Assembly: GCA_016839805.1 (NCBI GenBank)
Contig: JAEOTO010000015.1
Coordinates: forward strand, 32,001-96,000
Source of the DNA: Candidatus Hermodarchaeota archaeon
GTDB lineage: Archaea > Asgardarchaeota > Hermodarchaeia > Hermodarchaeales > Hermodarchaeaceae
Reading direction: 5' to 3'
DNA: 64,000 nt
In this document: piece after piece, positions 32,698-52,930 of the stretch
Layout of the letters: each line of letters starts with the position of its first letter
How positions within the stretch are numbered: the stretch's first letter is position 1
Position numbers and translations under genes: made by a program
Notes under the pieces: generated by a model
Databases searched by the model: none
What the model was told of the DNA's origin: nothing
The model's input: only the letters and a program-made list of their open reading frames with translations

Positions 32698-33891
32698 TTG
32701 CGCCGACGCTGGCTTGCTCTCATCCTAATTAGCATCATAATTATCTCTGGGATAGGTGTTATTATTTTTTGGAATTGGTTCAAACGCTCTACGCCACTTC
32801 AACATGAAATGGTTTGTCAACTCACCGGTGAAGGGGCTCTTAATGACACAACTGTTGTGAATGTCTATGGTGCTGATTTAGGTCTAATGATTGAGTATCA
32901 AACCCGACTTCACTTCATTTTTGGCGATACTTTTGGTCCTGACAAATGGGACTGGCGATCAAATACTATGGCTTACACGGATGACTCAGATCCCTCTGAT
33001 GGAATTCTGTTAACAGGATGGATTACAGATACGGCCACACATCTGGCGAAAGAATTAATTCATAGCCAGAAAATTGACGAGGTGGAAAAGACGGTGATCC
33101 CCACTGCAGCTTACAGCCATGATAGTTGTCTGTATATCTTTTACATGTCTGTTATTCAGTGGGGTGATGCAGGCGATTGGACTTGTAATAATGCCAGCAT
33201 TGCTTACTCCTTTGATGGCCACACCTTCATTGAAGCAACAAATATGTCCTGGCCTGGCTCTTCCCACTTCATTGAATGGGGCTATATCAAAGGGGATGCC
33301 ACAGCACCTTCCACAGGAGGATACCTCTACTTTCTCACAACCGGCAGTGGTCGATATCACGACTGTTACCTAGCGCGGGTCTTAGAAAACCAGATTTTGA
33401 ATCAAAGTGGCTACCAATACTGTGCAGGGTTGGACTCCAGCGATTTACCTATCTGGTCTTCAAATCATGCTGATGCACAACCTGTTATCGAAGCACCAAC
33501 CGGTGAAGTATCGGTGATGTGGAATTCATATCTTGAGAGGTACATGATGATGAATCTCGACGAGGTTGCAAAGAAGATCGTTATTCGGATGGCCCAAATG
33601 CCCTGGGGACCTTGGAGTCAACCCCATACGGTGATTACCCGCCCCGAATATATCGGGTTTTATGCACCAAATATTGATCCACTAATGGTTGAGGATAATG
33701 GGCGAATTGTGTATTTTTCCATGAGTCTCTGGGCTGAGTATAATGTGTATCTCATGAGGGTTGACTTGACAAGTCTATGGGGAATATATCATCCGAGTTG
33801 CACCATGTTTCTCAATTCCTCTGTGTATTGGGTTAGAGAAATTCACATAAACCTGATGGGCAACCTAAAGGTTGTGATGCGAGATGAATAA
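32698..33891 (+). CDS. DUF4185 family membrane-anchored protein (beta-propeller glycosidase-like)
   Basis: N-terminal TM; GADLG, FGDTFG, WRSN, IPT, GE.SV and PWGPWS motifs; GGAGG before TTG. Confidence 0.8.
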   Translation: MRRRWLALILISIIIISGIGVIIFWNWFKRSTPLQHEMVCQLTGEGALNDTTVVNVYGADLGLMIEYQTRLHFIFGDTFGPDKWDWRSNTMAYTDDSDPSDGILLTGWITDTATHLAKELIHSQKIDEVEKTVIPTAAYSHDSCLYIFYMSVIQWGDAGDWTCNNASIAYSFDGHTFIEATNMSWPGSSHFIEWGYIKGDATAPSTGGYLYFLTTGSGRYHDCYLARVLENQILNQSGYQYCAGLDSSDLPIWSSNHADAQPVIEAPTGEVSVMWNSYLERYMMMNLDEVAKKIVIRMAQMPWGPWSQPHTVITRPEYIGFYAPNIDPLMVEDNGRIVYFSMSLWAEYNVYLMRVDLTSLWGIYHPSCTMFLNSSVYWVREIHINLMGNLKVVMRDE

Positions 33892-34050
33892 CGTGTATGA
33901 TATTATTATCATTGGGGGGTGAACCTGCAGGGCTTTCTATGGCTATTTATTCAGCGCTTATGGCAATGAAGACTCTCATTTTAGAAGGGCAATGGTTCGG
34001 CGGGCGGGCTGCTACCGTTCCTGATGTATGAAACTATTAGGGGGTAATGG
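33884..34050 (+). pseudogene. trxB: Degenerate thioredoxin-reductase N-terminal fragment
   Basis: MNNVYDIIIIGG, a one-base shift in the G6 run (33914-19), then EPAGLSMAIYSALMAMKTLILEGQWFGGRAATVPDV*NY*G, matching the TrxB FAD-binding start; two stops. Confidence 0.75.
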
Positions 34051-34184
34051 CGGGAACCAATGCATACTGATATGTGAAGAAACGGAAATCTAACTAGTTA
34101 ATATTAAGAATTTAGTAGATTCTGAAATCTAATCTCCATGTGATACGCTTAGGAGACACACAATTTCAGTAACTTTGAGTTGGT

Positions 34185-35537
34185 CTAATTTGTGGGAATG
34201 GATAATTTAGTCCAGTCAACGAAATCTTCGCGTTTACGGTCAATGCGCGTACTTAACCAGGTAATAAGGTCATGAACAGTTTTGATAGCAGCAGGGTGCA
34301 TCATCATGAAAACATCCACACCTGCTAAGAGGAACATCAGTGCTGTTGTACTCTCCCAAATAGGTCCTCGAAGCTCTCGGGGTCCCAATTCAGGTCGTTT
34401 CATCCAGGCTTCCCGGGCTGCCCAGGCATTTGTTGTGCCACTACTTAACGGAAATTGAAGTTCTGAATCCCCTAATAATCCCGCTAATCGCATGCGTTCC
34501 ATGATGGTGAAACTATACTCCGCACCATAGCCCAGAGCTGCCGTTGTCGGATCGATGATAATTTGATCCGGGGTGATGTAATCGAGGAGTCGACGATTGA
34601 GTTCCTTTTGCTGGTTGATATCAATGCTAGTCCAAGAGAGTACAAGTTGATTATGGGCCTTAGCTGCTTTGGCCACAGGTTCCCACATATCGACGGTAGC
34701 TGACGCAAGCAGGACACGTTCGCCTTCAGCGACTTCAGCAGCCTTAGCGAGTATTTCGGCATCCTTCGTTGGATCGCCGGAACCCCCGACGATGATTGGT
34801 ACCTTTACTGCCTGTAATACCTTTTCAAAACCTTTCATTGCCTCTTTTACGCTTGTATCCTCGAGGAGGGGATCGGTGCTAATCATGTGATAAGTGATGA
34901 AGTCTGCATCGAATTTGTCGATGACGAGTCGTGCCCAGTCGACAGGATCATCCATGACATCATCGTAATGGACACGAACAGCTTTGGCGAGTTTAATCCG
35001 CATGTCAAAGACGTCAGCAGCGACAACAGGTAGATGCTTTGGTGAAGACTGAAAGAGATTCCAGGCAGGAGTCTTATGGCCACCCACTGTGATCGTTTTA
35101 CTTCGCGATCCGCCTTCGGCTTTTGTAGCACCAAGAGTGATTTCACGGATTTGACCGGAATACTCTGTTAGTGGTGCCTTGAAACGGGCTTTAAGTAACT
35201 TATCAGGGCGAACAGCTGTCGGAATCCCTGGGATGGACACAGATGATTGCCCAGTGGACATTTGTACATTGTATCCCAAGGCTGCGAGCATTTGCTGGGC
35301 AAATTGTTGCATGGCAAAAGCGTTTTGCGCGAGGAATTGGTGAGCTGGTCCAGCTATACCCCCAACACCTCCTGGGGGAACAGTAACTTCGAGTTCATCG
35401 ACATCAATGGTTATCTCTTCCAGTTCCAATTCTTGGAACTTGCCAAATATGGCTTCCAGGGGACCTAGAATACCTAGTGCGGGATCATCTCCGGACAGCA
35501 CGAGCTCGTTTTTCTCTTTCTTCTTTTTTGGCGACAT
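34185..35537 (-). CDS. cdhD: CODH/ACS complex delta subunit (corrinoid Fe-S protein small subunit)
   Basis: TLGATK..GG.R, DVFD, STDP, IIVGGSG, DPTTAALGYG.EY and NAWAAREAW motifs. Confidence 0.93.
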   Translation of the reverse strand: MSPKKKKEKNELVLSGDDPALGILGPLEAIFGKFQELELEEITIDVDELEVTVPPGGVGGIAGPAHQFLAQNAFAMQQFAQQMLAALGYNVQMSTGQSSVSIPGIPTAVRPDKLLKARFKAPLTEYSGQIREITLGATKAEGGSRSKTITVGGHKTPAWNLFQSSPKHLPVVAADVFDMRIKLAKAVRVHYDDVMDDPVDWARLVIDKFDADFITYHMISTDPLLEDTSVKEAMKGFEKVLQAVKVPIIVGGSGDPTKDAEILAKAAEVAEGERVLLASATVDMWEPVAKAAKAHNQLVLSWTSIDINQQKELNRRLLDYITPDQIIIDPTTAALGYGAEYSFTIMERMRLAGLLGDSELQFPLSSGTTNAWAAREAWMKRPELGPRELRGPIWESTTALMFLLAGVDVFMMMHPAAIKTVHDLITWLSTRIDRKREDFVDWTKLSIPTN

Positions 35538-35552
35538 GATTCATCGCCTCGC

Positions 35553-36983
35553 CTACTTCTTCGCCTTTTCATCCAGGCGTTTTATTATGACCTTTTCAGC
35601 GTAGATTTTTGCATTCTTGAAGATAATCTGGAATCCTGGACTACCACCAGCCGCAGGCACAGTGGTCATCATTTGACCTGGCATCATGAAAGGTTGACTA
35701 GCTTGTGTCGTTGGAGCTGCTTCTTCAACGCGTTCTTCTTCCTCAAGGCGAGCCGCTGCACCAGTTTCAGTCCAGCGCTCAACGACTGGGTGATTATGGT
35801 CTTGTAGGTATCGTTTTAATTCATCGATATCAGAAACATCGTTTTCTGTAGGAATGATATCTCTCAGATTATCAGGCATGAAGTCATAGATTCTGTCTTT
35901 GATAGCTTTGGGCAACCAGACAACTCTTTCCCACCCTCCATCAACTTGAAGGAATTTGGGTGATCGCATATATTCTATCGAAACCCCATGAAAACCAGGA
36001 ATCTGGCGACCACCAGCTGTCGAATCAGCCATCGTTGAAAATGGCAAGCCATTTACAGAAGGACCCTTGTAATCACGGTGAACTAAACCAAGACCATCAA
36101 CTTCTGGGATGATAAAAGCAATTGCTTCGAAACAACCACAACTAGTATGTGGTTTATCAAAAGCACTATACAAACATACCTCAGTAACCGCACCCAAGGT
36201 TTTTTCCTTGTAGGCTTGATTAACCCCCTTGTATTCGCCTTTGAACTCATCAATGACATCACCTTTCTCTATGGAAAATAAAGGTCCCTTCGGATCAACA
36301 CGTGCAGCCGCACGACCATCGAACCACGAAATCGCACCACAATTTGCATAGCGCTGTGCAGTAATGGTACAACAATGGGTTGGGGCAAAACTTTGGCAGA
36401 GTGTGCAACCATAAAAGACATCAACCTCTTCGTCTTTTAGACCACGAGCGCGAGCGTCACGTTCATCATACCGTTTTATTGCAGCATCGAATTGTTCAGC
36501 GATTTTATCAGGATCAGTAAAGAAGGTGATTTGGATTTTCTCGATAATAGGTAGTTCACTCTTGTAAAGGCGTTCGTAAACTTGACCAAATACCTTAAAG
36601 GAATTGAGTCCTTTTTGGAATGATTTCTTGCTAATGCGAATCCAAATGTCGTATCTTTGGTTTAGGTGCATAACCCCTTCCATGAAGTTGGTATATTCGT
36701 GGACGTGGCGTTCGAGGACGCCCTCCAGGTCTTCTTCGACTTCTTTACCTGCAACTTCTATCAAGATTCCAAGCGGATGGTAACCTCCTTCGTCCAAATC
36801 TTTGAGATCAGGACCAACGACAGTAATTTTACCATCTTCGACTTCTGCAGCTTTCTTGGCGAGAACGAGTTCGAATTTCTTTTCGATTTTTGGTCCGCCG
36901 AGTTCGACTTGCATATCGCCCTTGCGAATGCGTTCACCCTCATAGATTACACCTACTTCCATTGGGAGATCTTCGAATGACAT
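35553..36983 (-). CDS. cdhC: CODH/ACS complex beta subunit (acetyl-CoA synthase)
   Basis: YEGERIRK, FYGCTLCQSFAPTH.C and PHTSCGCFE motifs; ATG at 36983 (ORF extends to 37001). Confidence 0.95.
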   Translation of the reverse strand: MSFEDLPMEVGVIYEGERIRKGDMQVELGGPKIEKKFELVLAKKAAEVEDGKITVVGPDLKDLDEGGYHPLGILIEVAGKEVEEDLEGVLERHVHEYTNFMEGVMHLNQRYDIWIRISKKSFQKGLNSFKVFGQVYERLYKSELPIIEKIQITFFTDPDKIAEQFDAAIKRYDERDARARGLKDEEVDVFYGCTLCQSFAPTHCCTITAQRYANCGAISWFDGRAAARVDPKGPLFSIEKGDVIDEFKGEYKGVNQAYKEKTLGAVTEVCLYSAFDKPHTSCGCFEAIAFIIPEVDGLGLVHRDYKGPSVNGLPFSTMADSTAGGRQIPGFHGVSIEYMRSPKFLQVDGGWERVVWLPKAIKDRIYDFMPDNLRDIIPTENDVSDIDELKRYLQDHNHPVVERWTETGAAARLEEEERVEEAAPTTQASQPFMMPGQMMTTVPAAGGSPGFQIIFKNAKIYAEKVIIKRLDEKAKK

Positions 36984-36984
36984 T

Positions 36985-37530
36985 CTATTTCTTACCTCCA
37001 TTTTTAGTGAGGATTTCTTTTAGTGCATCATTCCATTTTTGTTTCTTTAAATTCGGGAAGGACCACGACGCATGGGGTTGGAAATACCGACCTAAACTGA
37101 CAGTTTTCATTTCAGTGGAGAAGTTGACTAGGGCGGAGAGCATTAGCCACTCCATATAATAGGGGAAACCAAAGGTCATGACAAGGTCATGCGGGCCCTT
37201 CTTCGGTGCCACCATCCATTCAGGGTCAGTCAGTAGATATGTGATTTCCATAGCGTTGTGGGAGTATACGTTTTTGAATCCTTTTTCCTTGAAGGCTTTA
37301 ATGGTTTGAGCGGTTGCGACAATGGGGATGTTCCAATTCTCGGAAAATTCGATGAAGTAGTCAATCATCGACTTTTTCCGAGTTTGCTCTGTTAGGCTGT
37401 TGGCACCCACAACAAGAAGAGGATGTTTTGCTTTCTTGAGAAGTGCCTTGACCACGACGGGTTTTTCGAGTGATTGGGCTTTCTTTGGACCACAGACTTC
37501 AGCAGTCTGCCAGGGTTCAGCACGCATCAT
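36985..37530 (-). CDS. cdhB: CODH/ACS complex epsilon subunit
   Basis: PWQ.A...GP, KAK.PLL.VG, L.DP.W, G..YY and A.WSFPN motifs. Confidence 0.9.
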   Translation of the reverse strand: MMRAEPWQTAEVCGPKKAQSLEKPVVVKALLKKAKHPLLVVGANSLTEQTRKKSMIDYFIEFSENWNIPIVATAQTIKAFKEKGFKNVYSHNAMEITYLLTDPEWMVAPKKGPHDLVMTFGFPYYMEWLMLSALVNFSTEMKTVSLGRYFQPHASWSFPNLKKQKWNDALKEILTKNGGKK

Positions 37531-39984
37531 TTACCCATCACCTCCACCATAGACCATACGCTGTAGAATTGTTGGATCTGGAATGGGCTTCTCTTGCCAT
37601 TTGTGTTCTTTCATGTGAACGTGGATTTTATCTTTAAGGGTGATGGGGATATCCGATTCTCGGCGAATGAAGCTATGTACGTCGTCAGGGAAGTAACCAT
37701 AGTACCGTTCATGAAGATCGATGTAGTGGCTGAGCTTTATGGACCGACCTCTGCTAGTGTCGTTGGGTCGGAAGCAAAGCTTTGCGGTCATTACCATGCA
37801 CTCTTCCATAGTTTCTACTGCATAGAAGAGGTGTTCAGGAGCTGGCGCAATTTGGACTTGGTTGCCAGTTCGTGCATCGTACACCTTCCAGTCCTCTGCT
37901 TTGTCTGCACGTCCAAGTAACATTCGGCGATATTTCGTTCCATGTGGACCAACGATTACTGGAACTCCAAGGCGCCAAAAGCCAGAAGCAATTGAAGCTG
38001 CTTTTTGTGACATAGCGCCCCAAGATATACCAACTGCACCAACTCGGTTGAGGATGTAGTCAGCGATTTCTTCATAGTTTCCACGAAGGTTACGTTTCGC
38101 GAAGATGCTTGCAATTTTGATGGCAGCACCCGCAATGTGGGGATTCGAAACACAGGAGCCCACGTTAACGACACCACCTGCATCAAAAGCGCCCGTACGT
38201 CGTTCGTAGATACTTTTTCCTTCTTCGTCTTTAACAGTACCAACAGTCATAGCTGCGCAACCAGAGAGTACAATGATGAAGCGGCGTTTTGCGAATTCTT
38301 CAGCCATGTCATGAATTGCTCGTCCTCCGTCAGGATAATTAGCACATCCAACATGTGCAATTACGCCTGGGATTTCTCCGAAAACAACAGGTTGCCCCAC
38401 GGCCCGTATCTCTGTATCTTTGATGGCACCACGCCCTGTCCGAACCTTAAAGGACTCGTTCATCCAACGATCTTTTGCTGCAGTAACCATCCAGCTATGA
38501 AGCTCATATTCGTTGGGACAAGCTGATTCACATCGCGCACATCCAATGCATTCATCATAAACATCTACAAGTGGACCAAAGTTTCCTTCAGATGCTGCTA
38601 GTACTGCTTCCATGACTGGTTGATCATTGGGACAAGCCCTTCGGCATTCTGAACATTGTCGGCAGGTTTGGGCGAGTTCTTTAATTTTGTTCTTGCTTGG
38701 CAATGAGGATTTCTTCTTACGTTTTGGTTTCACAGCCAGAGCAGTCTTTACGACTACTTCACCCACTTTACTATGGTCGCCAATGAAGACTCCAGGCACT
38801 TTAAAGGAGACTAAATCAGCAACAATCGCATCCACATCATCATTTGTACGATCTGGTAAGCCCATACAAGATTTATCACAAGTAGCAATAACTGGTGTTT
38901 TGACTTTTGCTGCATGCAATGGAATATCTGTCCGAATACATTGTTCATCAACAACCAAAACGTCAGCTAAGCCACTTCGCACAAAACGTAGTTGCCAAGA
39001 GATAGGACCGACAATCTTGGCTTTGGAGTCATGTCTGGTTATATCCCAGGCTGTGCAGCAAATTCCACTGACATCGACCTTATCTTGGAGTCCGTGCTCC
39101 ATTGAATAATCAGTTATCGCTGCAGCGGGAACAACATTGTGTCCGATACATAGGATCGTAGCTTTTGACTGATCCATGGAGGCGATGCCAGCTTCAACTA
39201 ATGGTGCCTCTGGATCTGATTGGGGAAAGCCCATTGTGGAGATTTGAACCAGATCCGCGATTTCCATCCCCACTTGGTCAATCATTCCAGCATGAAGTAC
39301 CTTTGATTCAAAGTCTAACCAACTGCCCTCTTGACCCGTATGGACTGCTGACAAAGTATGTGTAAGTTGAGTTTCACAATAATCGATAATCGATGACGCA
39401 TCTTCTAAAGAACGAGGGCGAATTCCAGTTACTAACCGTGAAACAGGAGCTTCAATATCTACACCCTCGCCTTGCGTTAAAGGTGTTCGTGGACCAAATT
39501 CATGAATCAAATGATCAACAAGATGTCGAGCATGCGCCAAGTGTGCCGCACACCCGATGTTCGCGGCAGCCAACACAATTCGTGCGGACTGTCCCTTAAT
39601 GTCCAGACCACAAGCTCCGCGTTTTCCACCCGTCAGGTCACATTTACCGAAGGTACAAAGACAGCACAGCTGACAAGCTGGCATGTATGAGGGTTGGTAA
39701 CGCTTCAGGAGTTTGTGGTCCCAATCGCGAAGCGTGGTGACTTCTGGCATGGGAGTTGGTCCCATGGGTTCGTCCCAGTCTTCATCGATAACTCTGCCAA
39801 TACTGACTTCGACGTTGCGGAAACTTCCGAAACCGGTGTCAAGTCGATCGGCTCGTATTCGGGCCCGTTTTTGTTCTGTCAATGTGGTTCGTTCCTTCCA
39901 TTTGCGCGCATAGTAGGAGGGAAATATTGGTGAAATAGTAGCAGTTTCGCCTTTAAGTTTTGATGCTTCTGCAAGGTTTTGCAT
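37531..39984 (-). CDS. cdhA: CODH/ACS complex alpha subunit (Ni-CODH)
   Basis: PMGPTP.P, C.LCCLCTFGKC, GHN, GICCT, DEQC, GC, SGC and GSCVSN motifs; two ferredoxin motifs; real start probably TTG at 39882. Confidence 0.95.
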   Translation of the reverse strand: MQNLAEASKLKGETATISPIFPSYYARKWKERTTLTEQKRARIRADRLDTGFGSFRNVEVSIGRVIDEDWDEPMGPTPMPEVTTLRDWDHKLLKRYQPSYMPACQLCCLCTFGKCDLTGGKRGACGLDIKGQSARIVLAAANIGCAAHLAHARHLVDHLIHEFGPRTPLTQGEGVDIEAPVSRLVTGIRPRSLEDASSIIDYCETQLTHTLSAVHTGQEGSWLDFESKVLHAGMIDQVGMEIADLVQISTMGFPQSDPEAPLVEAGIASMDQSKATILCIGHNVVPAAAITDYSMEHGLQDKVDVSGICCTAWDITRHDSKAKIVGPISWQLRFVRSGLADVLVVDEQCIRTDIPLHAAKVKTPVIATCDKSCMGLPDRTNDDVDAIVADLVSFKVPGVFIGDHSKVGEVVVKTALAVKPKRKKKSSLPSKNKIKELAQTCRQCSECRRACPNDQPVMEAVLAASEGNFGPLVDVYDECIGCARCESACPNEYELHSWMVTAAKDRWMNESFKVRTGRGAIKDTEIRAVGQPVVFGEIPGVIAHVGCANYPDGGRAIHDMAEEFAKRRFIIVLSGCAAMTVGTVKDEEGKSIYERRTGAFDAGGVVNVGSCVSNPHIAGAAIKIASIFAKRNLRGNYEEIADYILNRVGAVGISWGAMSQKAASIASGFWRLGVPVIVGPHGTKYRRMLLGRADKAEDWKVYDARTGNQVQIAPAPEHLFYAVETMEECMVMTAKLCFRPNDTSRGRSIKLSHYIDLHERYYGYFPDDVHSFIRRESDIPITLKDKIHVHMKEHKWQEKPIPDPTILQRMVYGGGDG

Positions 39985-43594: not shown

Positions 43595-44203
43595 TTAGTC
43601 TTTTGGTTTACGAAGTTTTGGAAAGATAGCTCCGGTCCGTTTTTGGTACTCGCGATACTCATCCCCAAAGCGTTTGATGAGATCCTCTTCCTCATAATGG
43701 ATGATAATAGGACTAACGATGATAATCATGATGATGGCCCAAATAACTAGGAAAAGGGAGTTAATGAAGAGAGGAATGATAACAAACCAGGGCATCTCGC
43801 CTACGGCTTGGGGGTGTCGAATGTAGTTGTAGATACCGCCATACATTTGTGTAGTTTCGGAGGGTATCATGGTTTCCGGACCAGCATCTTTGATACCTTT
43901 GATCCAAATAGGTGTGAATATGATAGCAAGAATTACGCCAATGAGGATGCTTACGAGATGACAAGGGTTAACGAACCAGGCTAGTTCTTGAATCGGGAAC
44001 CATATCCACAGGATAAAATTTATCGTCATAACTCCCATGAGGATTCCCGATGTGGCTCGGAACCGTTTAGAATCTTGCCAGGCTTTCTCACCATATTTTT
44101 CAGAACGAGAAGCTGGTTGAACGCTAAGGATGTAAAAGTACCAACAAAATATCGCTGCAATATTTAGGATAATGAAATTTGCCCAAGGAATTAATGTCAT
44201 CAC
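43595..44203 (-). CDS. ICMT/PEMT-family integral membrane methyltransferase (copy 3)
   Basis: GGIYNYIRHPQ..GE and EE..L..RFG..Y.EY motifs. Confidence 0.85.
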   Translation of the reverse strand: MMTLIPWANFIILNIAAIFCWYFYILSVQPASRSEKYGEKAWQDSKRFRATSGILMGVMTINFILWIWFPIQELAWFVNPCHLVSILIGVILAIIFTPIWIKGIKDAGPETMIPSETTQMYGGIYNYIRHPQAVGEMPWFVIIPLFINSLFLVIWAIIMIIIVSPIIIHYEEEDLIKRFGDEYREYQKRTGAIFPKLRKPKD

Positions 44204-44823
44204 GAGTCAGCTTTTGTAATTTTAGTCCGATTCCTTCTAAGTTTGGGGATTAGTGCAGGTATAAGTTTTCGATAGTCAATGTAGTCTTGACCAAATCTTT
44301 TCACCAAATCTTTCTCTTCAAAATAAATCGCGAGAGGCGTATAGATCAGGACGAATAATGTCATCCATAATACTAGAAACCAGGAATTCAAGAAAAATCC
44401 TAGAGCAATATACAAGGGCATTTCCCCCAAAGCTCCTGGATGTCGAATGTGGTTATAGATTCCTTCATGCATTGTCGTTTCTTCATGTGCTGCACCATGT
44501 TCCTTTCCACCATCTTTCATTGCCTTGAACATGATAATAGAAAAGGGGGTAGCGATTCCAATCCCCAAAGCCATTGGAATAAATGGATTTAAACTAATAG
44601 GCCAGATGAATGAGGGAATCGGGAACCAAAGCCAAAGAATAGCATTGATGATTACAATGAAGATGGCAATGAAGCAGATTTGTCGGAGCCAAAAGCATCT
44701 TCGCCAAGCCTTTTCTCCCCATCTCTCTGACAACGTTATGGGTAATGTGCTTAATATACTTGTAACTGAAAAAATCACGACGAACACATACATGCTAACA
44801 AAATTCAACCAATTACCAATCAC
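44200..44823 (-). CDS. ICMT/PEMT-family membrane methyltransferase (copy 2)
   Basis: GIYNHIRHP...GE and EEKDL..RFG..Y.DY motifs. Confidence 0.85.
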   Translation of the reverse strand: MIGNWLNFVSMYVFVVIFSVTSILSTLPITLSERWGEKAWRRCFWLRQICFIAIFIVIINAILWLWFPIPSFIWPISLNPFIPMALGIGIATPFSIIMFKAMKDGGKEHGAAHEETTMHEGIYNHIRHPGALGEMPLYIALGFFLNSWFLVLWMTLFVLIYTPLAIYFEEKDLVKRFGQDYIDYRKLIPALIPKLRRNRTKITKADS

Positions 44824-44998
44824 ATTATCGACTCTTTTCTTAGTTGAATTTTTGATCGATGATTATTCTTTAGGGAACTATATATAAAAAGTTAAATTTA
44901 AATGTTAATTAATTGCTATAATTATTAGTATTTATTCTAATATAATACTGAGTGCCTATAATAAATACCCCAACAAACGCAACATAAATTTTGACTGT

Positions 44999-45607
44999 TC
45001 AATTGGAATCGTTCCTTTTCTTTAATTTAGGGAAAAGGGCTCCAGTCCGTTGTTGATATTCACAGTATTCATCACCAAATCGTCGAATCAAATCCTTTTC
45101 CTCGACATAAATCATGATTGGAAGATAAATAAGAATGAAGATAAATGTGTAGACTAACAGGAAGAGAGAATTAACTACGAAGACTAAGACAAAGTACCAG
45201 CTCATTTCACCAAGTGTTTGGGGATGTCGGATGTAGTTGTAGATACCGCCAAACATTTTTGTTTTTGTTGATGGTGTCTTCGCTTCATCCCCAGATTCTT
45301 TTAGACCCTTGTACACAATAGGCAGGGTGCTGAAAAAGATGATGAAGGCAATGGCGTATCCAATCCATGGATTGAAGAATATTAGCCAGGCGAGTTGGGG
45401 AACTGGAAACCATAGCCAAAGAAACATGGTGAAAAGTTGAATGACCATGAAAATTGTGCCAATTGTTCTGAACCGTTCACAGAGTTTCCAGGCGTTTGGT
45501 CCACGTTTTTCTGCTAATTTTGCAGGCATAAGACTGGGGATGTAGAATCCTGCAAAGAGTGCACCACTGATGAACAGCATAGCAAGGTTGAACCATGGGA
45601 TTAGCAC
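44999..45607 (-). CDS. ICMT/PEMT-family membrane methyltransferase (copy 1)
   Basis: GGIYNYIRHPQ..GE and EEKDL.RRFG..Y.EY motifs. Confidence 0.85.
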   Translation of the reverse strand: MLIPWFNLAMLFISGALFAGFYIPSLMPAKLAEKRGPNAWKLCERFRTIGTIFMVIQLFTMFLWLWFPVPQLAWLIFFNPWIGYAIAFIIFFSTLPIVYKGLKESGDEAKTPSTKTKMFGGIYNYIRHPQTLGEMSWYFVLVFVVNSLFLLVYTFIFILIYLPIMIYVEEKDLIRRFGDEYCEYQQRTGALFPKLKKRNDSN

Positions 45608-45673: not shown

Positions 45674-46468
45674 TTATAAACTTAAGTGCCTACGCAGTTC
45701 TGGAATAAGACCCTGGATGGCGTTGATAGCTGGGGAATCAGCCGCAAAATCTAATGGGGCAATACCTTCGATATTGGCTTGGCGGATGGCCTTATCAAAG
45801 GGTATTACAGTGAGTAGAGGGATATTCAACTCATTTAGAGTTGTTTCGATAACTTCTTTGTCGGTTTCGTCCATTACCTTATTCGCTATTGCAAAGACTG
45901 TATCGACACCGATATCATGGGCGAGTTTCATGATTCGTCCCACGGTATTGATGGATGTCTGACTTGGCTCAACTACAACAAGTAATGCATCCATTCCCTT
46001 TGATGTGCCTCGACCAAGGTTTTCAATTCCTGCTTCAAGATCCATCACAAAGGCTTCATCCATTCCAACAATTAAGTACCGAATTAGCGCCTTCAGAAGA
46101 GCACCTGCAGGACACATACATCCGGATCCTCCAATGGTAACGGTTCCAGCGACAAGGAGGGTAACATTATCTGGTCCAGCTATTCCAAATTTATCTGCTA
46201 AATCGGCTACGTGCGGATTGAGTTTGAACATCTGACCATAAACTTTGGGATCCATACCTGTTCGTTCTTTCACTAATTCATCGTTTTCAGTTAGTGGGAT
46301 AATCTTGTCAGCAACATCAGAAGGAATACCTAACGTTGCAGCCAATGTTGGTGTGGGATCAGCATCTACAGCAAGTACTCGGATACCCTCTCGGCCTAAT
46401 AGACGAGCTAGGGTTCCTGAAACAAGAGTCTTGCCGACACCACCTTTTCCAGCTACTGCGATTTTCAT
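45674..46468 (-). CDS. cooC: CooC-type nickel-insertion ATPase
   Basis: MKIAVAGKGGVGKT, DADP, GSGCMCP and D.EAG.E.LGRG motifs. Confidence 0.9.
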   Translation of the reverse strand: MKIAVAGKGGVGKTLVSGTLARLLGREGIRVLAVDADPTPTLAATLGIPSDVADKIIPLTENDELVKERTGMDPKVYGQMFKLNPHVADLADKFGIAGPDNVTLLVAGTVTIGGSGCMCPAGALLKALIRYLIVGMDEAFVMDLEAGIENLGRGTSKGMDALLVVVEPSQTSINTVGRIMKLAHDIGVDTVFAIANKVMDETDKEVIETTLNELNIPLLTVIPFDKAIRQANIEGIAPLDFAADSPAINAIQGLIPELRRHLSL

Positions 46469-46532
46469 TCAATCACCAACTGCGCGTAGGTACATTTAGC
46501 TATTGCTTAAAACCTTCGCCTTTCCCACCATC

Positions 46533-47822
46533 CTACAAAACGGCTAACCATGATGCCAGCTGTTCTAACACTTGTACTTCAGTAGGAATGTTAGCTGGTG
46601 GCTTAGTTATAGGTTGAACGGGAACAGCGGATCCATCCATTCGGTAAACTACACCAGTCGTTTCTACGCCTGTTACAGCTGTAGGAATCACAACTGTAGA
46701 TTCACGTGTTGTAAGACTGGGATGGGTTGAAAGGGTGATGAGTGGAATTTTCTCAAGCGCCCTTGCGATTGGCGCAGGTAACATACTGAGTGGGTCCCAA
46801 CCCACGATTAGTGCAGCATCGAACTCGTTAGCGATGAGTCCTTTAAAGACTGATTTGTAGGGTCTAGGGGGTTGACGGTTGAAATCCACTGAATAGGGTA
46901 TTTTTGTATCAGTTTGGCTTGCTGTCACAACGCCTATACTATTACAATATGCGACCATAGGAAGAGTAACGCATGGTCGGCTCTTCTTGTTTAATACTCG
47001 AGCGACCTTCGAAAGTAATGGTAATGTTTTCGAAGCATGAGGTGAATGGAGTAACCCATTTCCATAAAAGATTGCGATGTAGTTCGCTTCTTGAATTTGT
47101 TTAGCAAAACTGAGAAACTCGATGGCGGGTATTCCTCCAACTTTGACAGGTGGGGTTCCAGTTGTGCCCTTGATTTCAGTTAGGAGCGTAGTTAAAAACT
47201 GTTCATCACCATTCTTGAATTCGAGAATGAGTTGGTGGTTGGCCAGTCGCATGGATTCAGTCTGTCGAATATCTAATACGGCAACGGTTCGACTTTCCCG
47301 ACCCTCTGGTATTTTTTCTCCTGTTGGGAAGACAGTATAACGGCTGGCATGGCGGTGGTGGCTCTCGGCTGGGTTGACGCCCCAATAGACGATGAAATCT
47401 GCAAGGTTCCGGATATCCTCGAGGTTAACTGTTCCTGTTTCACCACCCACTAACTTATGTTGACGAAGTTGACCATACTCAAAGCTTGCGGTGCTATCAT
47501 AGACTCCCTTCAAAGACTTGGCAAGTTTCAAACCTAAATGTGAAACTTCGATTGGACTATTGGACCAACCAATTAGCAAGGGACGTTGACTCGAGGAGAG
47601 AATGGAACTTGCTTCTTCATAGGCTTTTTTGAATGGAATAGTTTTAGCACTTGTTGATTTGGCTTTCATCTGAGCTTTCTTTAGCCGCGTTTGACTTCGT
47701 ATTGACGAATAATAAGCATGACCAAGAGCACATAATCCGAGTGACTGAATGCCAGTTTTTGTTACTTTTGCAGCTACATCATCACAGACAACAGAGCATC
47801 CGCAACAAACCGTATCTTGCAT
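46533..47822 (-). CDS. Formylmethanofuran dehydrogenase subunit B-like protein lacking the W/Mo-ligand Cys
   Basis: C.GC...CDD...C [4Fe-4S] ligands; G..NP..SH.RH.SRY; G..YRMDG; DSTASFEYG where FwdB has D..ASVCHG. Confidence 0.8.
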   Translation of the reverse strand: MQDTVCCGCSVVCDDVAAKVTKTGIQSLGLCALGHAYYSSIRSQTRLKKAQMKAKSTSAKTIPFKKAYEEASSILSSSQRPLLIGWSNSPIEVSHLGLKLAKSLKGVYDSTASFEYGQLRQHKLVGGETGTVNLEDIRNLADFIVYWGVNPAESHHRHASRYTVFPTGEKIPEGRESRTVAVLDIRQTESMRLANHQLILEFKNGDEQFLTTLLTEIKGTTGTPPVKVGGIPAIEFLSFAKQIQEANYIAIFYGNGLLHSPHASKTLPLLSKVARVLNKKSRPCVTLPMVAYCNSIGVVTASQTDTKIPYSVDFNRQPPRPYKSVFKGLIANEFDAALIVGWDPLSMLPAPIARALEKIPLITLSTHPSLTTRESTVVIPTAVTGVETTGVVYRMDGSAVPVQPITKPPANIPTEVQVLEQLASWLAVL

Positions 47823-47853
47823 AAATTCCCCGACCTACAGGAATGTGCATCCA

Positions 47854-48321
47854 TTACCAGATTTCAATCGCTTTCACATAACAACCTTGTTCACAGACTC
47901 GACAATTCATCCGATCTGGAGGAAACCGTCGGCATTTTTCGAGATTAATAATTTTTGCAGTGCCATTTTCAACACGAAAAACCGTGTCTGTCGACCGAGC
48001 AGCTTTACCACTAGCTGTGTCAGGTTCCGCAGAGGCATCTACAGGACATACGACGACACAGTTCCCACAACCGGTACACATGGTATCATCAAGTTTAACT
48101 CCCGTTTCTTCAGCAGCCAGTAAGGGTGTTATTAATTCATTGATGGTGGCAAGCTGGGTAGCATATTGTGGGTTCTCATGAAGAGGTGGACAATCCTTGA
48201 GTTCGACCTCGCGAAGAGCTAGACGTGTCGCAAAAGCCATACAGGTCATTCCACATTGTTTGCAATTGGTTTGGGGAAGGAGTTTATACAATTGCATTGG
48301 ATTGAGCTTTTTGTCAACCAT
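47854..48321 (-). CDS. FeS-domain + FwdG-like ferredoxin fusion
   Basis: LYKLLPQTNCKQCG..CMAFA...CP (CdhE/RnfB-type FeS domain), then CTGCGNCVVVCPV and C..C..C...C. Confidence 0.8.
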   Translation of the reverse strand: MVDKKLNPMQLYKLLPQTNCKQCGMTCMAFATRLALREVELKDCPPLHENPQYATQLATINELITPLLAAEETGVKLDDTMCTGCGNCVVVCPVDASAEPDTASGKAARSTDTVFRVENGTAKIINLEKCRRFPPDRMNCRVCEQGCYVKAIEIW

Positions 48322-48488
48322 TCGATCACGACACAGTTCTTAAGTAATCTTGAACCTGTGTGTACCTTTATCTGTTCGGTAACGACTATATGATTTGTTG
48401 TAGTGTTTGCCTCAATAATTAAATCAGAAGATGGTAAGGTAAGAAGTGTTATAGCGTCTCATGTTGCATCGAAACATGGCATAGTCAT

Positions 48489-50951
48489 ATGGTGACATCC
48501 GTGTCAAAGTCCACAAAGCGAAAAAAGGCCAAACAAAAAACTTCGCGTAGGAAACCCCGGAAGCAATCTACACCTCAAGGGGCCCTATTCATTTGTCATT
48601 GTGGAAGCAATATTGAAAGTGTTATTGATATTGATCAACTGAAACAGTATTACAAGACGCGACCTAATCTCATTGTGGTGGATGATGCACACTTTTGTGT
48701 TGAACAGGGACTCAATTCGATTCGTGATACAATTCGAGACAATAAAGTTGACCATGTGGTTGTAGCGGCCTGTTCTCCTCATCTTCATGGAGAATTAATG
48801 AGTCAAACCGTAGAAGAGGCTGGATTGAATCGAGGGCACCTTGCTATTGCTAACATTCGTGAACAGTGTAGTTGGGTCCATTATGGTGACCCGGAAGCAG
48901 CGACCACGAAGGCTCGTTTGATGATTGATGCCGCTATGAAAATGGCTGAGCATAGTCTACCTCTCCATTCAATTGATATTCCTATAACAAAACGAGTCCT
49001 AGTGATTGGTGGAGGAGTTGCTGGTATTATCACCTCATTACAACTTGCCAATGCCGGCTATGAAGTAATTCTTGTTGAAAAAACGGGTTTCTTGGGAGGT
49101 CACATGGCTAAATGGGACAAGTTGTTCCCAAGTTTGGATTGCAGTTTATGCATTCTAGGACCCATAATGACTCAGGTTAACACCCATCCCAAAATCAAAA
49201 CATTAACCCTTAGTGAAATCACAGATGTCCAGGGAACTCCTGGTGCGTATGATGTCCAGATCCACCAAGAACCTCGTTATGTCGATTTAGAAACCTGTAA
49301 CGGCTGTAATAAATGTCTTGAAATTTGTCCGATAGAAGAACCCAACGAGTATAATTATGGCTTGGGATCTCGCCGAGCGATTATCCGACCCTTTCCAAAT
49401 TCAGTTCCGCTTGCTCCATACATCGATATGGACGCATGTGTCGGCTGTCAATCGTGTGTCGGTGTGTGCGAAAAGGAATCTATTCGATTCGAAGATATAG
49501 ATCGTGATTATACATTCAAAGTGGGTGCCATCGTAGTTGCAACAGGATTCCAACCATTTAACCCACAATCATTAGCTGAGTATGGGTATGAGAGATATAC
49601 TGATGTTATTACCGCACCAGAATTGGAACGATTAATGAATCCCACAGGGCCTACAAATGGGATTGTTGTTAATCCATCCACTGGTAAGCAACCGAATAAG
49701 GTCGCCTTCGTGCAATGTGTCGGGAGTCGCGATATTCGAATTGGTCGACCTTATTGTAGCCGAATCTGTTGTACTTACGCTGTCAAGGAAGCAGTGCAAC
49801 TGCGTTTAGCTCAACCAGAAACGGATGTATACATTTTCTATACCGATATGCGAACCTTTGGCAAAGGTTTCGAAGAACTATATGAACGAGCGGCACGAGA
49901 ACATGGTATCACATTCATTCGCGGTCGTGTAGCAGAAGTCGAAGAGGATCCTCAAACAAAGAAGCTCATTATACGTGCAGAGGATACCGAACTTTGTGAA
50001 CCTATTGAGCTACCAGTTGACATGGTAGTATTAAGCGTGGGAGTTGATCCTTCACCCACCAACGCGAAGCTCGCAACCATACTTAATATTCCCCTAGATG
50101 AAAATAACTTCTTTCTTGAGAAACATCCCAAACTCGACCCAACAGGAACCTATTCCACTGGCATTTTTCTTGCTGGAAATTCACAGGGTCCAAAGGATAT
50201 TGCAGATACAGTGGCTCATGCCGGATTAGCTGCAGCTCAGGTTTCCGCCTTACTTCATCGGCGTAAGCTTTCACTTGAAGTGATCGCCCCACTTTTGGTG
50301 GATGCAAATCTGTGTGAGGGATGTAGGCTGTGTGAAAAAACCTGTGATGCCAATGCCATCTCCTTTGAAAATTCTTCTCTTCCAGAAATTGATGAACTAG
50401 CATGTACTGGGTGTGGAGCATGTGTTGCAGCCTGTCCTACTGGTGCTCTAGACCTCCCAGGATATACGCGTCAACAATTGATGGCAGCGGTAAATGCGGC
50501 CTGTACTGACAACCCATTCCAACCCGTTATTATTGGCTTCCTCTGTAACTGGTGTGCTTATACAGCTGCAGATAGCGCGGGAGTGAATCGTTTGCGATAT
50601 CCTCCCCAACTCATTCCTATTCGAGTACCGTGCAGTAGTCGTTTAGATCCACTGCTGATTCTTGAGGCTTTTAGTCAAGGAGCTGATGGTGTAGCGATTT
50701 TGGGGTGTCATGACACTGATTGTCATTACAGGACTGGTGTTGCAAAAGCGAAAACGCGTATTGATAACCTGCTTCCTCTCCTTGGTGAGATGGGGATTAG
50801 TGTTGATCGGATTTTCTTTGGAAGCACCGCAGCGTCAGAAGCTGGACATCTTCAAGAACTCATCTCTGACTTTGTGAAATTTATTGCTGAGTTGGGTCCA
50901 CTAGGTGCCGAATTAACAGTGACGACAAAAACTCGTAAGCATAGAAGATGA
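48489..50951 (+). CDS. hdrA: Heterodisulfide reductase subunit A fused to MvhD
   Basis: ICHCG.NI, ACSP..H, NIREQCSWVH, GGG.AG, DCS.C and QCVGSR..YCSRICC motifs; ferredoxins; C-terminal FLCNWC.Y, RVPC and GCH..DCHY (MvhD). Confidence 0.93.
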   Translation: MVTSVSKSTKRKKAKQKTSRRKPRKQSTPQGALFICHCGSNIESVIDIDQLKQYYKTRPNLIVVDDAHFCVEQGLNSIRDTIRDNKVDHVVVAACSPHLHGELMSQTVEEAGLNRGHLAIANIREQCSWVHYGDPEAATTKARLMIDAAMKMAEHSLPLHSIDIPITKRVLVIGGGVAGIITSLQLANAGYEVILVEKTGFLGGHMAKWDKLFPSLDCSLCILGPIMTQVNTHPKIKTLTLSEITDVQGTPGAYDVQIHQEPRYVDLETCNGCNKCLEICPIEEPNEYNYGLGSRRAIIRPFPNSVPLAPYIDMDACVGCQSCVGVCEKESIRFEDIDRDYTFKVGAIVVATGFQPFNPQSLAEYGYERYTDVITAPELERLMNPTGPTNGIVVNPSTGKQPNKVAFVQCVGSRDIRIGRPYCSRICCTYAVKEAVQLRLAQPETDVYIFYTDMRTFGKGFEELYERAAREHGITFIRGRVAEVEEDPQTKKLIIRAEDTELCEPIELPVDMVVLSVGVDPSPTNAKLATILNIPLDENNFFLEKHPKLDPTGTYSTGIFLAGNSQGPKDIADTVAHAGLAAAQVSALLHRRKLSLEVIAPLLVDANLCEGCRLCEKTCDANAISFENSSLPEIDELACTGCGACVAACPTGALDLPGYTRQQLMAAVNAACTDNPFQPVIIGFLCNWCAYTAADSAGVNRLRYPPQLIPIRVPCSSRLDPLLILEAFSQGADGVAILGCHDTDCHYRTGVAKAKTRIDNLLPLLGEMGISVDRIFFGSTAASEAGHLQELISDFVKFIAELGPLGAELTVTTKTRKHRR

Positions 50952-51065
50952 AGGCTTATAGTTGGTTTCGCTCTCCTATTAGACCAAGTCTAGGATGGCA
51001 ACAACCATTAAAGGTGTTAATTTGTAAGGCTAGAATAAGAACCTCTATTTGAAGAGATGCTCTAG

Positions 51066-52550
51066 ATGACCAAAGCGCAAAGGGACCGCATCATTGTTGG
51101 TGAACGCCCCAAAGTAACCAGTGAGGTTCTTGACGATACTAATATCCGCTATAATTGGAAAACCTCAATTCTTTATAAAAATCTGAAATATGACTTATCC
51201 CGTTGTGTTGGGTGCAGTCTCTGTCTTCCTTGTCCCTGGGATGCTATTACTTTAGGACCCGTTCAGGAAATTGCAGCAGGACGCCTTGAGGGCGCTCCCT
51301 TGATTTTGATTGATGAGGATAAATGTACTTTCTGTGGGTTATGTGATTCAGCCTGTCTTTTCAATGCCATAGAAGCTCGATTTGATGATATACCCGCAGA
51401 TGCCCAATATTCTCGTTTAAAGGGAAAACATGAACTTGACGAGGACAAATGTGCCCCCTGTCTGCTTTGCGCGAAAATCTGTCCAAGGGATGCAATATCC
51501 GTTGATCTGAAGGTTACACCTAAAACCGAACTCGTTCAATACAAGAATCCCAAAGCGGCCCAACGTGTAGCCGATGGTGTCCCTGATGCAAAAGGCTCAA
51601 TAAAAATTGACGAGGACAAATGTACCTGGTGTGGACTATGCGAACTACTTTGCCCGGAATGTATCACTATCTACTGGCTTGAAGAGAAGCCCAAACCTCC
51701 TGATTTTACTGCAGCTGTTGGCATCAGGGTAGACACCAAATATTGTGACTATTGTGGTCTATGCGAAAAGATCTGTCCCTCTGATGCTGTTCATGTTGAA
51801 TGTGAGAGTTCACCACACCGTACCATTAAAGATCCAGAAGTCGATGGCACCATGACCATTGATGACGGATTGTGCGTGGATTGTACGCTTTGCGCTGATA
51901 AATGCCCTTATGAAGCCCTTGATGTCACTCTCCCCTTAACTGGAGCTATTGAGATTCAAAACCTCGAAAAATGTGATCCCACAGGCTGTGTTAATTGCTT
52001 CAATATCTGTCCAACAAAAGCTATCTATGCCACAGGAGATAAGGACAAAATCGCAATAAATGAAGAGATCTGTGTTTTTTGTGGGGCATGCGAAAATGCA
52101 TGTCCCGAACAGGTTCTGAAGGTGACACGTGACAGTTATCAATTGTCTCAACTTGAGAAAGCTCGGGACTGGGAACGCGCTCGCGCACACAGATTCTATG
52201 ACCACTTAATCGGACGTGATATTCCACCCAACGATATCTACGAGCGAATCATTAAGGTCCCCCCAGTAAAACATCCACCTGGGGTACAGACCAAAACGGA
52301 AAAGTGGTCTACAGATACAGCAAGCCGCCATTTAGCCCAAGACCGAATTCAAAAACTACAACAAATCATCCGAAAGAATTGGCGGCTTCGACTACTCTTT
52401 GAAAGAGGTCGCATTGATCCGCTCTGTACTGCGGTCCAAAAAGAGGTTAATAACAAAAAAATATCTAAAAGTAAAAGCAACACAGCGCCTGTAAAACACA
52501 AGGACCCAGCAAAAAAATATAGTAAAAAAACTAGACCCAAAACCCGATGA
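51066..52550 (+). CDS. fwdF: Polyferredoxin, FwdF-like
   Basis: About 8 CxxCxxCxxxCP motifs including CDP.GC..C.NICP; basic C-terminal tail. Confidence 0.8.
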   Translation: MTKAQRDRIIVGERPKVTSEVLDDTNIRYNWKTSILYKNLKYDLSRCVGCSLCLPCPWDAITLGPVQEIAAGRLEGAPLILIDEDKCTFCGLCDSACLFNAIEARFDDIPADAQYSRLKGKHELDEDKCAPCLLCAKICPRDAISVDLKVTPKTELVQYKNPKAAQRVADGVPDAKGSIKIDEDKCTWCGLCELLCPECITIYWLEEKPKPPDFTAAVGIRVDTKYCDYCGLCEKICPSDAVHVECESSPHRTIKDPEVDGTMTIDDGLCVDCTLCADKCPYEALDVTLPLTGAIEIQNLEKCDPTGCVNCFNICPTKAIYATGDKDKIAINEEICVFCGACENACPEQVLKVTRDSYQLSQLEKARDWERARAHRFYDHLIGRDIPPNDIYERIIKVPPVKHPPGVQTKTEKWSTDTASRHLAQDRIQKLQQIIRKNWRLRLLFERGRIDPLCTAVQKEVNNKKISKSKSNTAPVKHKDPAKKYSKKTRPKTR

Positions 52551-52552
52551 TC

Positions 52553-52930
52553 TTAGGGTAATTCCTTGATTTTGGTAAGGGGTCCCTTACTGGGTTTAAT
52601 AATGACCGTTGTGCCCTGGCTAGGGATCATGGATTCAATGACCGCGTATGCCCAAGGACTGGGTTGCATAACCACAATGCTTTCCGGTTGTTCTTCTTTC
52701 AATTTCGCTGCCACAACCACAGAACCAATTTTCGAACCCACCTCGACAAAATCGCCTTCTTTTATATCCAATCGCTGTGCATCACGAGTCGAGAGAGTAA
52801 TTTGGGCTGCGACCTTCTCGTATTCTTTGGATATTGTTCCTTGACTTATCTGAACCACATCGACATCCAGTGCCCGGGCTAGAACTAATTGCGCTTCTAT
52901 CTGTGGGTAAAGGAAATCACGCAGTGCCAA
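52553..52930 (-). CDS. FwdD-like molybdopterin-dinucleotide-binding-fold protein (divergent)
   Basis: EY...AA......D..RL.I.EGD.V.V.S..G.VVV and P.PWA motifs; lacks TGRT..QG and the T.STG.P..K loop. Confidence 0.72.
   Translation of the reverse strand: MALRDFLYPQIEAQLVLARALDVDVVQISQGTISKEYEKVAAQITLSTRDAQRLDIKEGDFVEVGSKIGSVVVAAKLKEEQPESIVVMQPSPWAYAVIESMIPSQGTTVIIKPSKGPLTKIKELP

Follow-up and report, generated by a model that had tools for sequence, protein, structure and literature searches.

A FwdB-FwdD pair of Hermodarchaeota with replaced active-site residues, encoded with HdrA-MvhD and a polyferredoxin and linked to genes for CO dehydrogenase/acetyl-CoA synthase

Introduction

In the Hdr-Fmd supercomplexes of methanogens, the low-potential electron from HdrA is passed through FmdF and FmdG to FmdB. 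Genes for a related set of proteins are described here from a stretch of 64,000 nucleotides (the window; contig JAEOTO010000015.1, positions 32,001 to 96,000) of a Candidatus Hermodarchaeota archaeon. The module comprises a FwdB-like and a FwdD-like protein (FwdB' and FwdD'), a FwdG with an additional cluster domain (FwdG2), an HdrA-MvhD fusion and a FwdF-like polyferredoxin (Pfd). The metal-ligand Cys of formylmethanofuran dehydrogenase (Fwd), the His next to it and the catalytic Arg are all replaced in FwdB'. As judged from the sequences, FwdB' and FwdD' are most likely a catalytically dead, pterin-free relative of the CO2-reducing core of that enzyme, and the module would most likely handle electrons as a scaffold rather than reduce CO2.

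Several described systems resemble the module in part. The fwdG2B2D2 and hdrA1-pfd genes have been named in Methanosarcina acetivorans and are uncharacterised; fwdB2 is constitutively expressed (Rohlin and Gunsalus, 2010, PMC2838876). For the cultured Methanonezhaarchaeia strain YNP3N, it was proposed that formate serves as the electron donor and is oxidised by the FwdBD proteins of a Fwd-Hdr cluster (Kohtz et al., Sci Adv 2025, PMC12700198). Fhc and the type II HdrA-FdhB clusters offer precedents for a non-catalytic scaffold with a molybdopterin fold (PMC11656701, PMC12054007). FhcB (6S6Y) is a structural, non-catalytic FwdB homologue without the ligand Cys (PMC11656701, PMC12054007), and has Ser at the position (PMC12054007) where FwdB' has Glu. 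The type II hdrABC-mvhD-fdhB clusters of Methanosarcinales and anaerobic methanotrophic archaea (ANME) encode a Cys-less protein of molybdopterin fold ('Molybdop'), proposed to be a scaffold in the HdrA complex (PMC12054007). Our literature search found no paper on a Cys-less FwdB2 of Asgard archaea or on its link to cdh genes. Two open questions are addressed: the role of an HdrA-type bifurcating flavoprotein where the heterodisulfide CoM-S-S-CoB is lacking, and the source of electrons of sufficiently low potential for the reduction of CO2 to CO in the archaeal Wood-Ljungdahl pathway.

Results

Active-site residues of FwdB' and FwdD'

The window is part of a 114-kb contig in a 2.3-Mb metagenome-assembled genome that is 87% complete. 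The fwdB' gene (46533-47822, minus strand) encodes a FwdB2-type paralogue of 429 amino acids in an intact reading frame with no internal stops, and was assigned with TIGR03129, alignments to PDB entries, an AlphaFold2 (AF2) model and clade alignments. FwdB of Methanothermobacter wolfeii (5T5I_B) was matched by HMMER with an E-value of 1e-52. In this alignment SFEYG of FwdB' was placed on SVCHG of 5T5I_B, with Glu115 (GAG, 47478-47480) for Cys118 and Tyr116 for His119 (both codons at 47475-47480, minus strand). Similarly, PMVAYCN was placed on PMRGHYN, with Val290 for Arg288, Ala291 for Gly, Tyr292 for His290 and Cys293 for Tyr (M289-V290-A291-Y292-C293-N294 codons, 46941-46958, minus strand). 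The four [4Fe-4S] cysteines (C6, C9, C13 and C31) were all kept and matched the canonical positions.

FwdB' scored 305.6 bits against TIGR03129, under the curated cut-off of 327.8; the canonical FwdB of the same genome scored 523.6 bits. The AF2 model (mean pLDDT confidence 82.8) was superposed on 8RJA_B, 5T5I_B and 7BKB_H with template-modelling (TM) scores of 0.89-0.91, that is, as a full-size three-domain FwdB fold, and on FhcB (6S6Y_B) with a TM score of 0.67.

Two possible substitutes for the missing ligand were rejected. Selenocysteine was ruled out by the GAG codon and the lack of an in-frame stop. Cys293, which had been considered as another metal ligand, is not a substitute because it is Ser in the second Hermodarchaeota genus and Ala in several metagenomic members of the clade.

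The fwdD' gene (52553-52930, minus strand, TTG start) encodes 125 amino acids with a match to PF01568 (1.5e-11), and the domain-IV barrel is kept. LARALDVD was found at the canonical TGRT..QG position, and a 6-residue deletion was aligned at the canonical STGMPSFKG, where the STG.P..K motif is gone. The AF2 model (pLDDT 80.5) gave TM scores of 0.74-0.78 on FwdD chains and is thus still a FwdD barrel; it was poorly predicted only at residues 24-30, just past the altered first motif. An earlier note on this DNA, written from its letters, had read four N-terminal cluster cysteines in the FwdB-like protein, DSTASFEYG for ASVCHG with a Glu codon and no in-frame TGA, MVAYCN for MRGHYN, and the loss of the TGRT..QG and T.STG.P..K segments from the FwdD-like protein. 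All of these readings agree with the alignments.

Conservation in Hermodarchaeota and the canonical Fwd copy

Four hundred genomes of the phylum were surveyed, and relatives of FwdB' were counted at an identity of at least 52%. Such relatives were confined to the window's own family, where they were found in 18 of 18 species genomes. All 18, and about 55 database clusters, have S-x-E-Y-G and lack Arg288, a recurrence that places the pattern beyond chance. The Glu115-Tyr116 pair was invariant in every complete Hermodarchaeota sequence aligned. The ratio of nonsynonymous to synonymous substitution rates (dN/dS) against the closest relative was 0.14 for fwdB', 0.07 for fwdG2, 0.09 for cooC and 0.035 for cdhA; dS was saturated except for this relative, and the fwdB', fwdG2 and cooC values are each from one pair. 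The proposal of the earlier note that the pair cannot interconvert CO2 and formate in the normal way is upheld by these data: the changes of Cys to Glu, His to Tyr and Arg to Val are fixed throughout a clade that evolves under purifying selection, with both FwdD motifs gone as well.

A canonical fwdB with SVCHGP and PLRGHFN was found in the same genome. The canonical genes are scattered: fwdD, fwdA and fwdC are on contigs C23 and C30, and the single fwdA (C23) and the single fwdC (C30) are both unlinked to the canonical fwdB. Neither fwdA nor fwdC was linked to the module in any Hermodarchaeota or Thorarchaeota locus.

Two groups of FwdB paralogues

The phylum was found to hold two FwdB paralogue groups. 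Group 1 has SVCHGP and PMRGHYN and is located with fwdD, fwdA and fwdC. Group 2 is directly preceded, in every complete locus sampled, by a gene for a FwdG with an N-terminal cluster domain (PF04060) of the type found in the corrinoid iron-sulfur protein (CFeSP) subunit AcsC, and is usually accompanied by hdrA-mvhD, a polyferredoxin gene and a fwdD of its own. The PF04060 domain was present in all FwdG2 proteins sampled, those of Methanosarcina and Methanothrix included. In two trees the FwdG2-linked and FwdA-linked FwdB proteins fell on opposite sides of one branch, with approximate likelihood-ratio (SH-aLRT) supports of 97 and 99, and FwdB' fell in the FwdG2-linked clade. Of the 400 Asgard genomes, 215 encode FwdG2. 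When prokaryotes were scanned with one genome for each species, group 2 was also recovered from Thor-, Baldr-, Jord-, Frey- and Helarchaeota and, outside Asgard archaea, from Bathyarchaeia, Korarchaeia, other Thermoproteota, Methanothrix and Methanosarcina.

Arg288 was absent from every FwdG2-linked FwdB sampled, which had A, I, V, S or another residue there, and His119 was often replaced by Q, L or F. The ligand Cys was kept in many group 2 lineages and was gone in Hermodarchaeota (Glu), Thorarchaeota (Gly or Ala), one Bathyarchaeon (Tyr-Tyr), some Methanothrix (Ser) and a Helarchaeon. The metal-ligand Cys was lost at least three times in the family; the losses in the Bathyarchaeon, in Methanothrix and in the Helarchaeon were independent, with gene set and gene order retained.

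The FwdB2 proteins of Hermodarchaeota and Thorarchaeota were sisters (98-99% support), with the Baldrarchaeota protein next, and both FwdD motifs were lost in the two lineages alike. In the FwdD2 proteins of lineages that keep Cys-His, RT.EQG and P.[FYL]K were both kept in three of the five sampled and partly kept in the other two. Hermodarchaeota keep 50 and Thorarchaeota 38 of the 65 columns that are invariant in canonical and Cys-His proteins, and the columns that both have lost cluster around the two active-site motifs. Because both sister clades lack the two FwdD motifs, the metal site and probably the pterin would have been lost before the lineages split. Loss of the pterin from the FwdB'D' lineage is quite probable, and in this simplest history Glu-Tyr would then have become fixed in Hermodarchaeota for a structural or other reason.

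Individual loci showed further variation. A Bathyarchaeia locus (L097, 329-1600) represents an independent loss of the ligand, with SLYYG in a FwdB2 whose gene shares a strand with cdhABC and lies about 0.75 kb upstream. In four Methanothrix loci (L127, L131, L132 and L141), FwdB2 has S-Q-G for C-H-G and is without the RGH motif, and sister Methanothrix keep C-Q-G; on these sequences this would be a second or third independent ligand loss, inside an obligate aceticlastic methanogen. Four Cys-His FwdB2 sets from Jord-type and other Asgard archaea (L059, L063, L070 and L104) include a FwdA paralogue that has diverged from the canonical protein (26-38% identity) and no FwdC; together with FwdB2, this FwdA may form a second Fwd isoenzyme without the catalytic Arg. 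In Thorarchaeota, DUF3786 and DUF166 genes were found just beyond the fwdD2 end of the module (L092, 2710-3354; L101, 3267-4067), and in L092 a gene for a Ras-family small GTPase adjoins fwdD2.

Electron-carrying partners and gene layout

The region 45674-52930 contains six genes. The fwdG2, fwdB' and cooC genes are on the minus strand; hdrA-mvhD and the polyferredoxin gene diverge from fwdG2 across 167 bp (48322-48488), and fwdD' converges on the polyferredoxin gene. The divergent layout was kept in Hermodarchaeota, Thorarchaeota, Bathyarchaeia and Korarchaeia loci.

FwdG2 (47854-48321, minus strand) combines the N-terminal CFeSP/AcsC-type [4Fe-4S] domain (PF04060; Pfam FeS domain, 4.4e-12) with a FwdG-type 2x[4Fe-4S] ferredoxin; residues 6-79 matched 4DJD_C and residues 74-131 matched 5T5I_G. 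The HdrA-MvhD fusion (48489-50951, plus strand; 820 amino acids) scored 921.9 bits against the HdrA2 family NF040770 and 1.6e-41 against FlpD. Its residues 22-673 matched 8RVU_a and 5ODC_A end to end, and residues 677-805 matched 5ODC_D. The polyferredoxin (51066-52550, plus strand) has eight cluster motifs and a basic C-terminal tail of about 120 amino acids, and its residues 18-371 were closer to FwdF (5T5I_F, 9.5e-44) than to MvhB (4.6e-21). The neighbours named in the earlier note (an FeS-FwdG, HdrA-MvhD and FwdF) were thus each matched to a full-length solved counterpart. That note had also listed no fwdA, fwdC, hdrBC or hydrogenase gene in the window, and in family searches of the whole genome the 114-kb contig was likewise free of fwdA, fwdC, CCG-domain (hdrB) and [NiFe]-hydrogenase genes.

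The genome has one FwdF-like and one FwdG-like gene, both inside the module. Three other HdrA paralogues are located with hydrogenase and hdrB genes, so that the HdrA of the module is taken as a dedicated copy. HdrB-like genes were found on three other contigs, and contig C46 encodes HdrBC.

A Lys/Arg-rich tail of about 30 residues was seen at the N-terminus of HdrA-MvhD (48489-48580), and the basic extension of the polyferredoxin (52380-52550) is absent from solved FwdF; both tails could serve in docking or in nucleic-acid binding. In most Hermodarchaeota relatives one or two extra genes (456-574 amino acids, no Pfam hit; L040, 13653-15344; L043, 2658-5806) lie between hdrA-mvhD and the polyferredoxin gene. 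They were rejected as parts of the module, being beta-propeller or cell-surface-like in the ESM Atlas and absent from the window and from the second genus.

Linkage to CODH/ACS genes

Directly downstream of fwdB' is cooC (45674-46468, minus strand), for the Ni-insertion ATPase of carbon monoxide dehydrogenase (CODH), which matched CooC1 (3KJE) with 4.7e-40 and has the CxC motif as GCMCP. The genes cdhA-cdhB-cdhC-cdhD of the CODH/acetyl-CoA synthase (ACS) complex follow at 34185-39984 (minus strand; TIGR00314, 1134 bits; Pfam). Three methyltransferase genes of phosphatidylethanolamine N-methyltransferase (PEMT) type, an amidohydrolase gene and two small genes separate cooC from cdhA.

The order fwdD', then the polyferredoxin and hdrA-mvhD genes, then fwdG2-fwdB'-cooC and, further on, cdhABCD was found in seven Hermodarchaeota loci. 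The Thorarchaeota genes fwdG2-fwdB'-cooC-cdhABCDE-cooC follow one another on a single strand, as a contiguous array in which the gaps are short. In Baldrarchaeota (L098), fwdG2-fwdB2-hdrA/mvhD-pfd overlap as one operon, which is followed by fwdD2, hdrC-like, hdrB-like, cooC and cdhA genes. In Korarchaeia and Bathyarchaeia loci, cdhABC is immediately beside the module. The cdh-linked FwdB2 proteins of Bathyarchaeia, Korarchaeia, Baldrarchaeota, Hermodarchaeota and Thorarchaeota formed one subclade with 99% support.

The cdh operon of the window ends after cdhD (33884-34184); contig C5 (10674-12050) carries a complete cdhE (537.8 bits), whose product has an N-terminal cluster domain of its own. 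The three tandem PEMT/isoprenylcysteine-methyltransferase-like paralogues (about 200 amino acids each) and the 400-amino-acid amidohydrolase occupy 43595-45607, and one to three methyltransferase genes with an amidohydrolase gene recur at the same place in other Hermodarchaeota genomes. The amidohydrolase was rejected as a degenerate FwdA: the two have nothing in common beyond an N-terminal motif that is generic to the superfamily (38 bits), and its best matches are hutI and other amidohydrolases.

Discussion

On the sequence comparisons, the HdrA, MvhD, FwdF and FwdG parts of the electron wire are intact and only the terminal catalytic site is gone, which is the ground for reading FwdB'D' as a structural, cluster-bearing hub. 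The pair would be retained by selection as the Fe-S-bearing element on which FwdG2, the 8-cluster polyferredoxin and HdrA-MvhD are held. The wire from HdrA would then end at a site without a metal ligand, and its low-potential electrons would be exchanged with CODH/ACS and not spent on CO2 at a tungstopterin. Either the polyferredoxin or the N-terminal, CFeSP-type cluster domain of FwdG2, a candidate mobile plug, might mediate this exchange, which is suggested because the module shares its location or its operon with cdh and with cooC, the maturase gene. The proteins would presumably assemble into one complex, supplied by an electron donor, relieved by a high-potential acceptor and in contact with Cdh, and the electrons could pass towards CODH/ACS or away from it. 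A probability of about 0.5 is assigned to the reading in which FwdB'D', free of pterin, serves as the scaffold by which FwdG2 and the polyferredoxin are kept on HdrA-MvhD, and in which it handles electrons of low potential for CODH/ACS. The purely electron-relaying role put forward in the earlier note is plausible.

More tentatively, pterin-free FwdB'D', FwdG2, the polyferredoxin and HdrA-MvhD might form a unit for flavin-based bifurcation (or confurcation) that is dedicated, and hard-wired, to CODH/ACS. If so, it would be a second kind of supercomplex leading from bifurcation to CO2 reduction, a counterpart to the methanogen Hdr-Fmd complexes. Such a unit would also supply low-potential electrons directly for the reduction of CO2 to CO in non-methanogenic Asgard archaea, Bathyarchaeia and Korarchaeia, and would give the orphan HdrA a role.

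Several observations weigh against a scaffold that serves CODH/ACS. About 5.7 kb of other genes lie between cooC and cdhA in the window, hdrBC and any mid-potential electron donor are unlinked to the module in this genome, and the synteny with cdh may be mere clustering of Wood-Ljungdahl genes. The FwdB cluster is the end of the wire, and a relay role therefore needs an extra docking partner. The general nucleotide-binding motifs of FwdB' (WGxNPxESH, DxR, FxGxG, NxxG and GxExxG...D) are mostly kept; this retention, or the strict conservation of Glu-Tyr, could point to continued binding of a cofactor or to a new binding site.

The strongest competitor, though somewhat unlikely, is a dead scaffold without a specific tie to CODH/ACS. 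The module would then be a general soluble Hdr-type oxidoreductase for ferredoxin or polyferredoxin, with HdrBC encoded elsewhere, or the only FwdF/FwdG electron arm at the disposal of the canonical FwdABCD of this genome. In its favour are the HdrB-like genes on three other contigs and the position of the sole FwdF-like and FwdG-like genes inside the module, with the canonical fwdB, fwdD, fwdA and fwdC scattered. The fwdG2B2D2 genes of Methanosarcina and Methanothrix are moreover not beside cdh, with hdrA-pfd nearby in two Methanosarcina-type loci, and in most Asgard lineages that keep Cys-His no cdh gene lies closer to the module than about 7 kb. The same-strand Thorarchaeota array of fwdG2-fwdB' and cooC-cdhABCDE argues for a specific tie, however, as does the well-supported subclade that the cdh-linked FwdB2 proteins form across five lineages.

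Aspartate is a ligand of Mo in NarG. By extension, Glu115 could be the ligand through which FwdB'D' binds a metallopterin or other metal centre, and the pair could catalyse a different redox reaction with electrons passing to or from HdrA. Such a site would account for the invariant Glu-Tyr, for the 50 of 65 family-invariant columns that are kept (general dinucleotide-binding motifs among them), for a full-size FwdB fold where FhcB is trimmed, and for a D subunit retained under selection; it would also parallel the formate-oxidising role proposed for the Methanonezhaarchaeia Fwd-Hdr cluster (Kohtz et al., 2025, PMC12700198). It is nevertheless improbable: the Arg and His are gone as well, and FwdD' is without both conserved motifs, with a 6-residue deletion at one of them. 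Since Gly or Ala takes the place of the ligand in the sister Thorarchaeota clade, whose FwdD has undergone the same losses, loss of the ligand most likely preceded the fixation of Glu.

An archaeal Fhc-like complex, in which FwdB'D' with FwdA and FwdC would form or hydrolyse formyl-methanofuran without redox chemistry, had been offered in the earlier note and is very unlikely. FhcB is a cofactor-less relative of FwdB (PMC11656701), and the single fwdA and single fwdC of the genome are indeed free of the canonical fwdB. The fwdA, fwdC and ftr genes are, however, unlinked to the module in all Hermodarchaeota and Thorarchaeota loci, the neighbouring amidohydrolase is generic and not FwdA, and an intact HdrA/polyferredoxin wire is useless to a hydrolase. 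The D subunit is kept, and the fit of the FwdB' model to FhcB is well below its fit to FwdB. Decay of the paralogue in one strain, or an assembly artefact, could be read from a score under the FwdB cut-off and can be dismissed on the intact frame, the same replacements in all 18 species genomes, the dN/dS of fwdB' and the conserved synteny.

The scaffold reading thus bears on both questions raised at the outset, for which the module is a concrete candidate answer: a conserved wire of HdrA and polyferredoxin, terminating in the disabled shell of a CO2 reductase and sharing an operon with cooC-cdh in several phyla. It also bears on annotation: the 'fwdB' genes of Asgard archaea, Bathyarchaeia, Methanothrix and Methanosarcina fall into two paralogue groups, and it is unsafe to count group 2 as formylmethanofuran dehydrogenase, because its catalytic Arg is never present and its metal ligand has been lost several times. 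The family is present in M. acetivorans, a genetically tractable species, so that its function is open to experiment.

Comparison with known systems

The window shares the gene content and clade membership of the fwdG2B2D2/Fwd-Hdr family and has not retained Cys118. Like the window, the fwdG2B2D2/hdrA-pfd set of Methanosarcina has a FwdG with PF04060, a FwdB of the same clade (99%) that lacks Arg288, a FwdD and an hdrA(-mvhD)-polyferredoxin pair nearby. Methanosarcina (C-L-G or C-F-G) and most Methanothrix (C-L/F/Q-G overall) keep the ligand Cys, whereas Hermodarchaeota have Glu-Tyr. The FwdD2 of the two methanogens aligns better with canonical FwdD than the degenerate FwdD of Hermodarchaeota, and their module is away from cdh, whereas that of Hermodarchaeota is linked to cooC and cdh.

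The Fwd-Hdr cluster of YNP3N likewise provides a second FwdBD set with FwdF, FwdG and Hdr, separate from the catalytic FwdABCD and with a proposed electronic coupling to HdrA. Its hdrABC genes are all co-located, whereas hdrBC are unlinked to the module described here and the contig of the window has no CCG-domain gene. A formate-oxidising role is excluded for the Hermodarchaeota pair because the metal ligand, the His and the Arg are all replaced.

The electron-bifurcating Hdr-Fmd/Fwd supercomplexes of methanogens (7BKB; Mvh-Hdr-Fmd, PMC13580544; Hdr-Vhu-Fwd, PMC13518236) have HdrA, MvhD, an FmdF-type polyferredoxin, FmdG and FmdB/D in common with the module. Unlike them, the module lacks FwdA, FwdC and a linked donor of the hydrogenase or Fdh kind, its terminal catalytic site is abolished, and MvhD is fused to HdrA.

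FhcB has 356 amino acids, remodelled loops and no D subunit, whereas FwdB' has 429 and a conserved fwdD'. It works with FhcA, FhcC and FhcD (homologues of FwdA, FwdC and Ftr) and without Hdr; in the window such partners are unlinked and HdrA is present. The type II Molybdop protein groups near FdhG and FhcB and is partnered by FdhB (F420), whereas the best relatives of FwdB' are FwdB proteins, and neither fdhB nor hdrBC is among the annotated neighbours of the module. The type II clusters have no FwdD, FwdG or FwdF and no CODH link, all of which are found in the window. FwdB' is neither an FhcB nor the FdhA-like type II Molybdop protein, and FwdB'D' probably works as those two do, as a cofactor-less scaffold.

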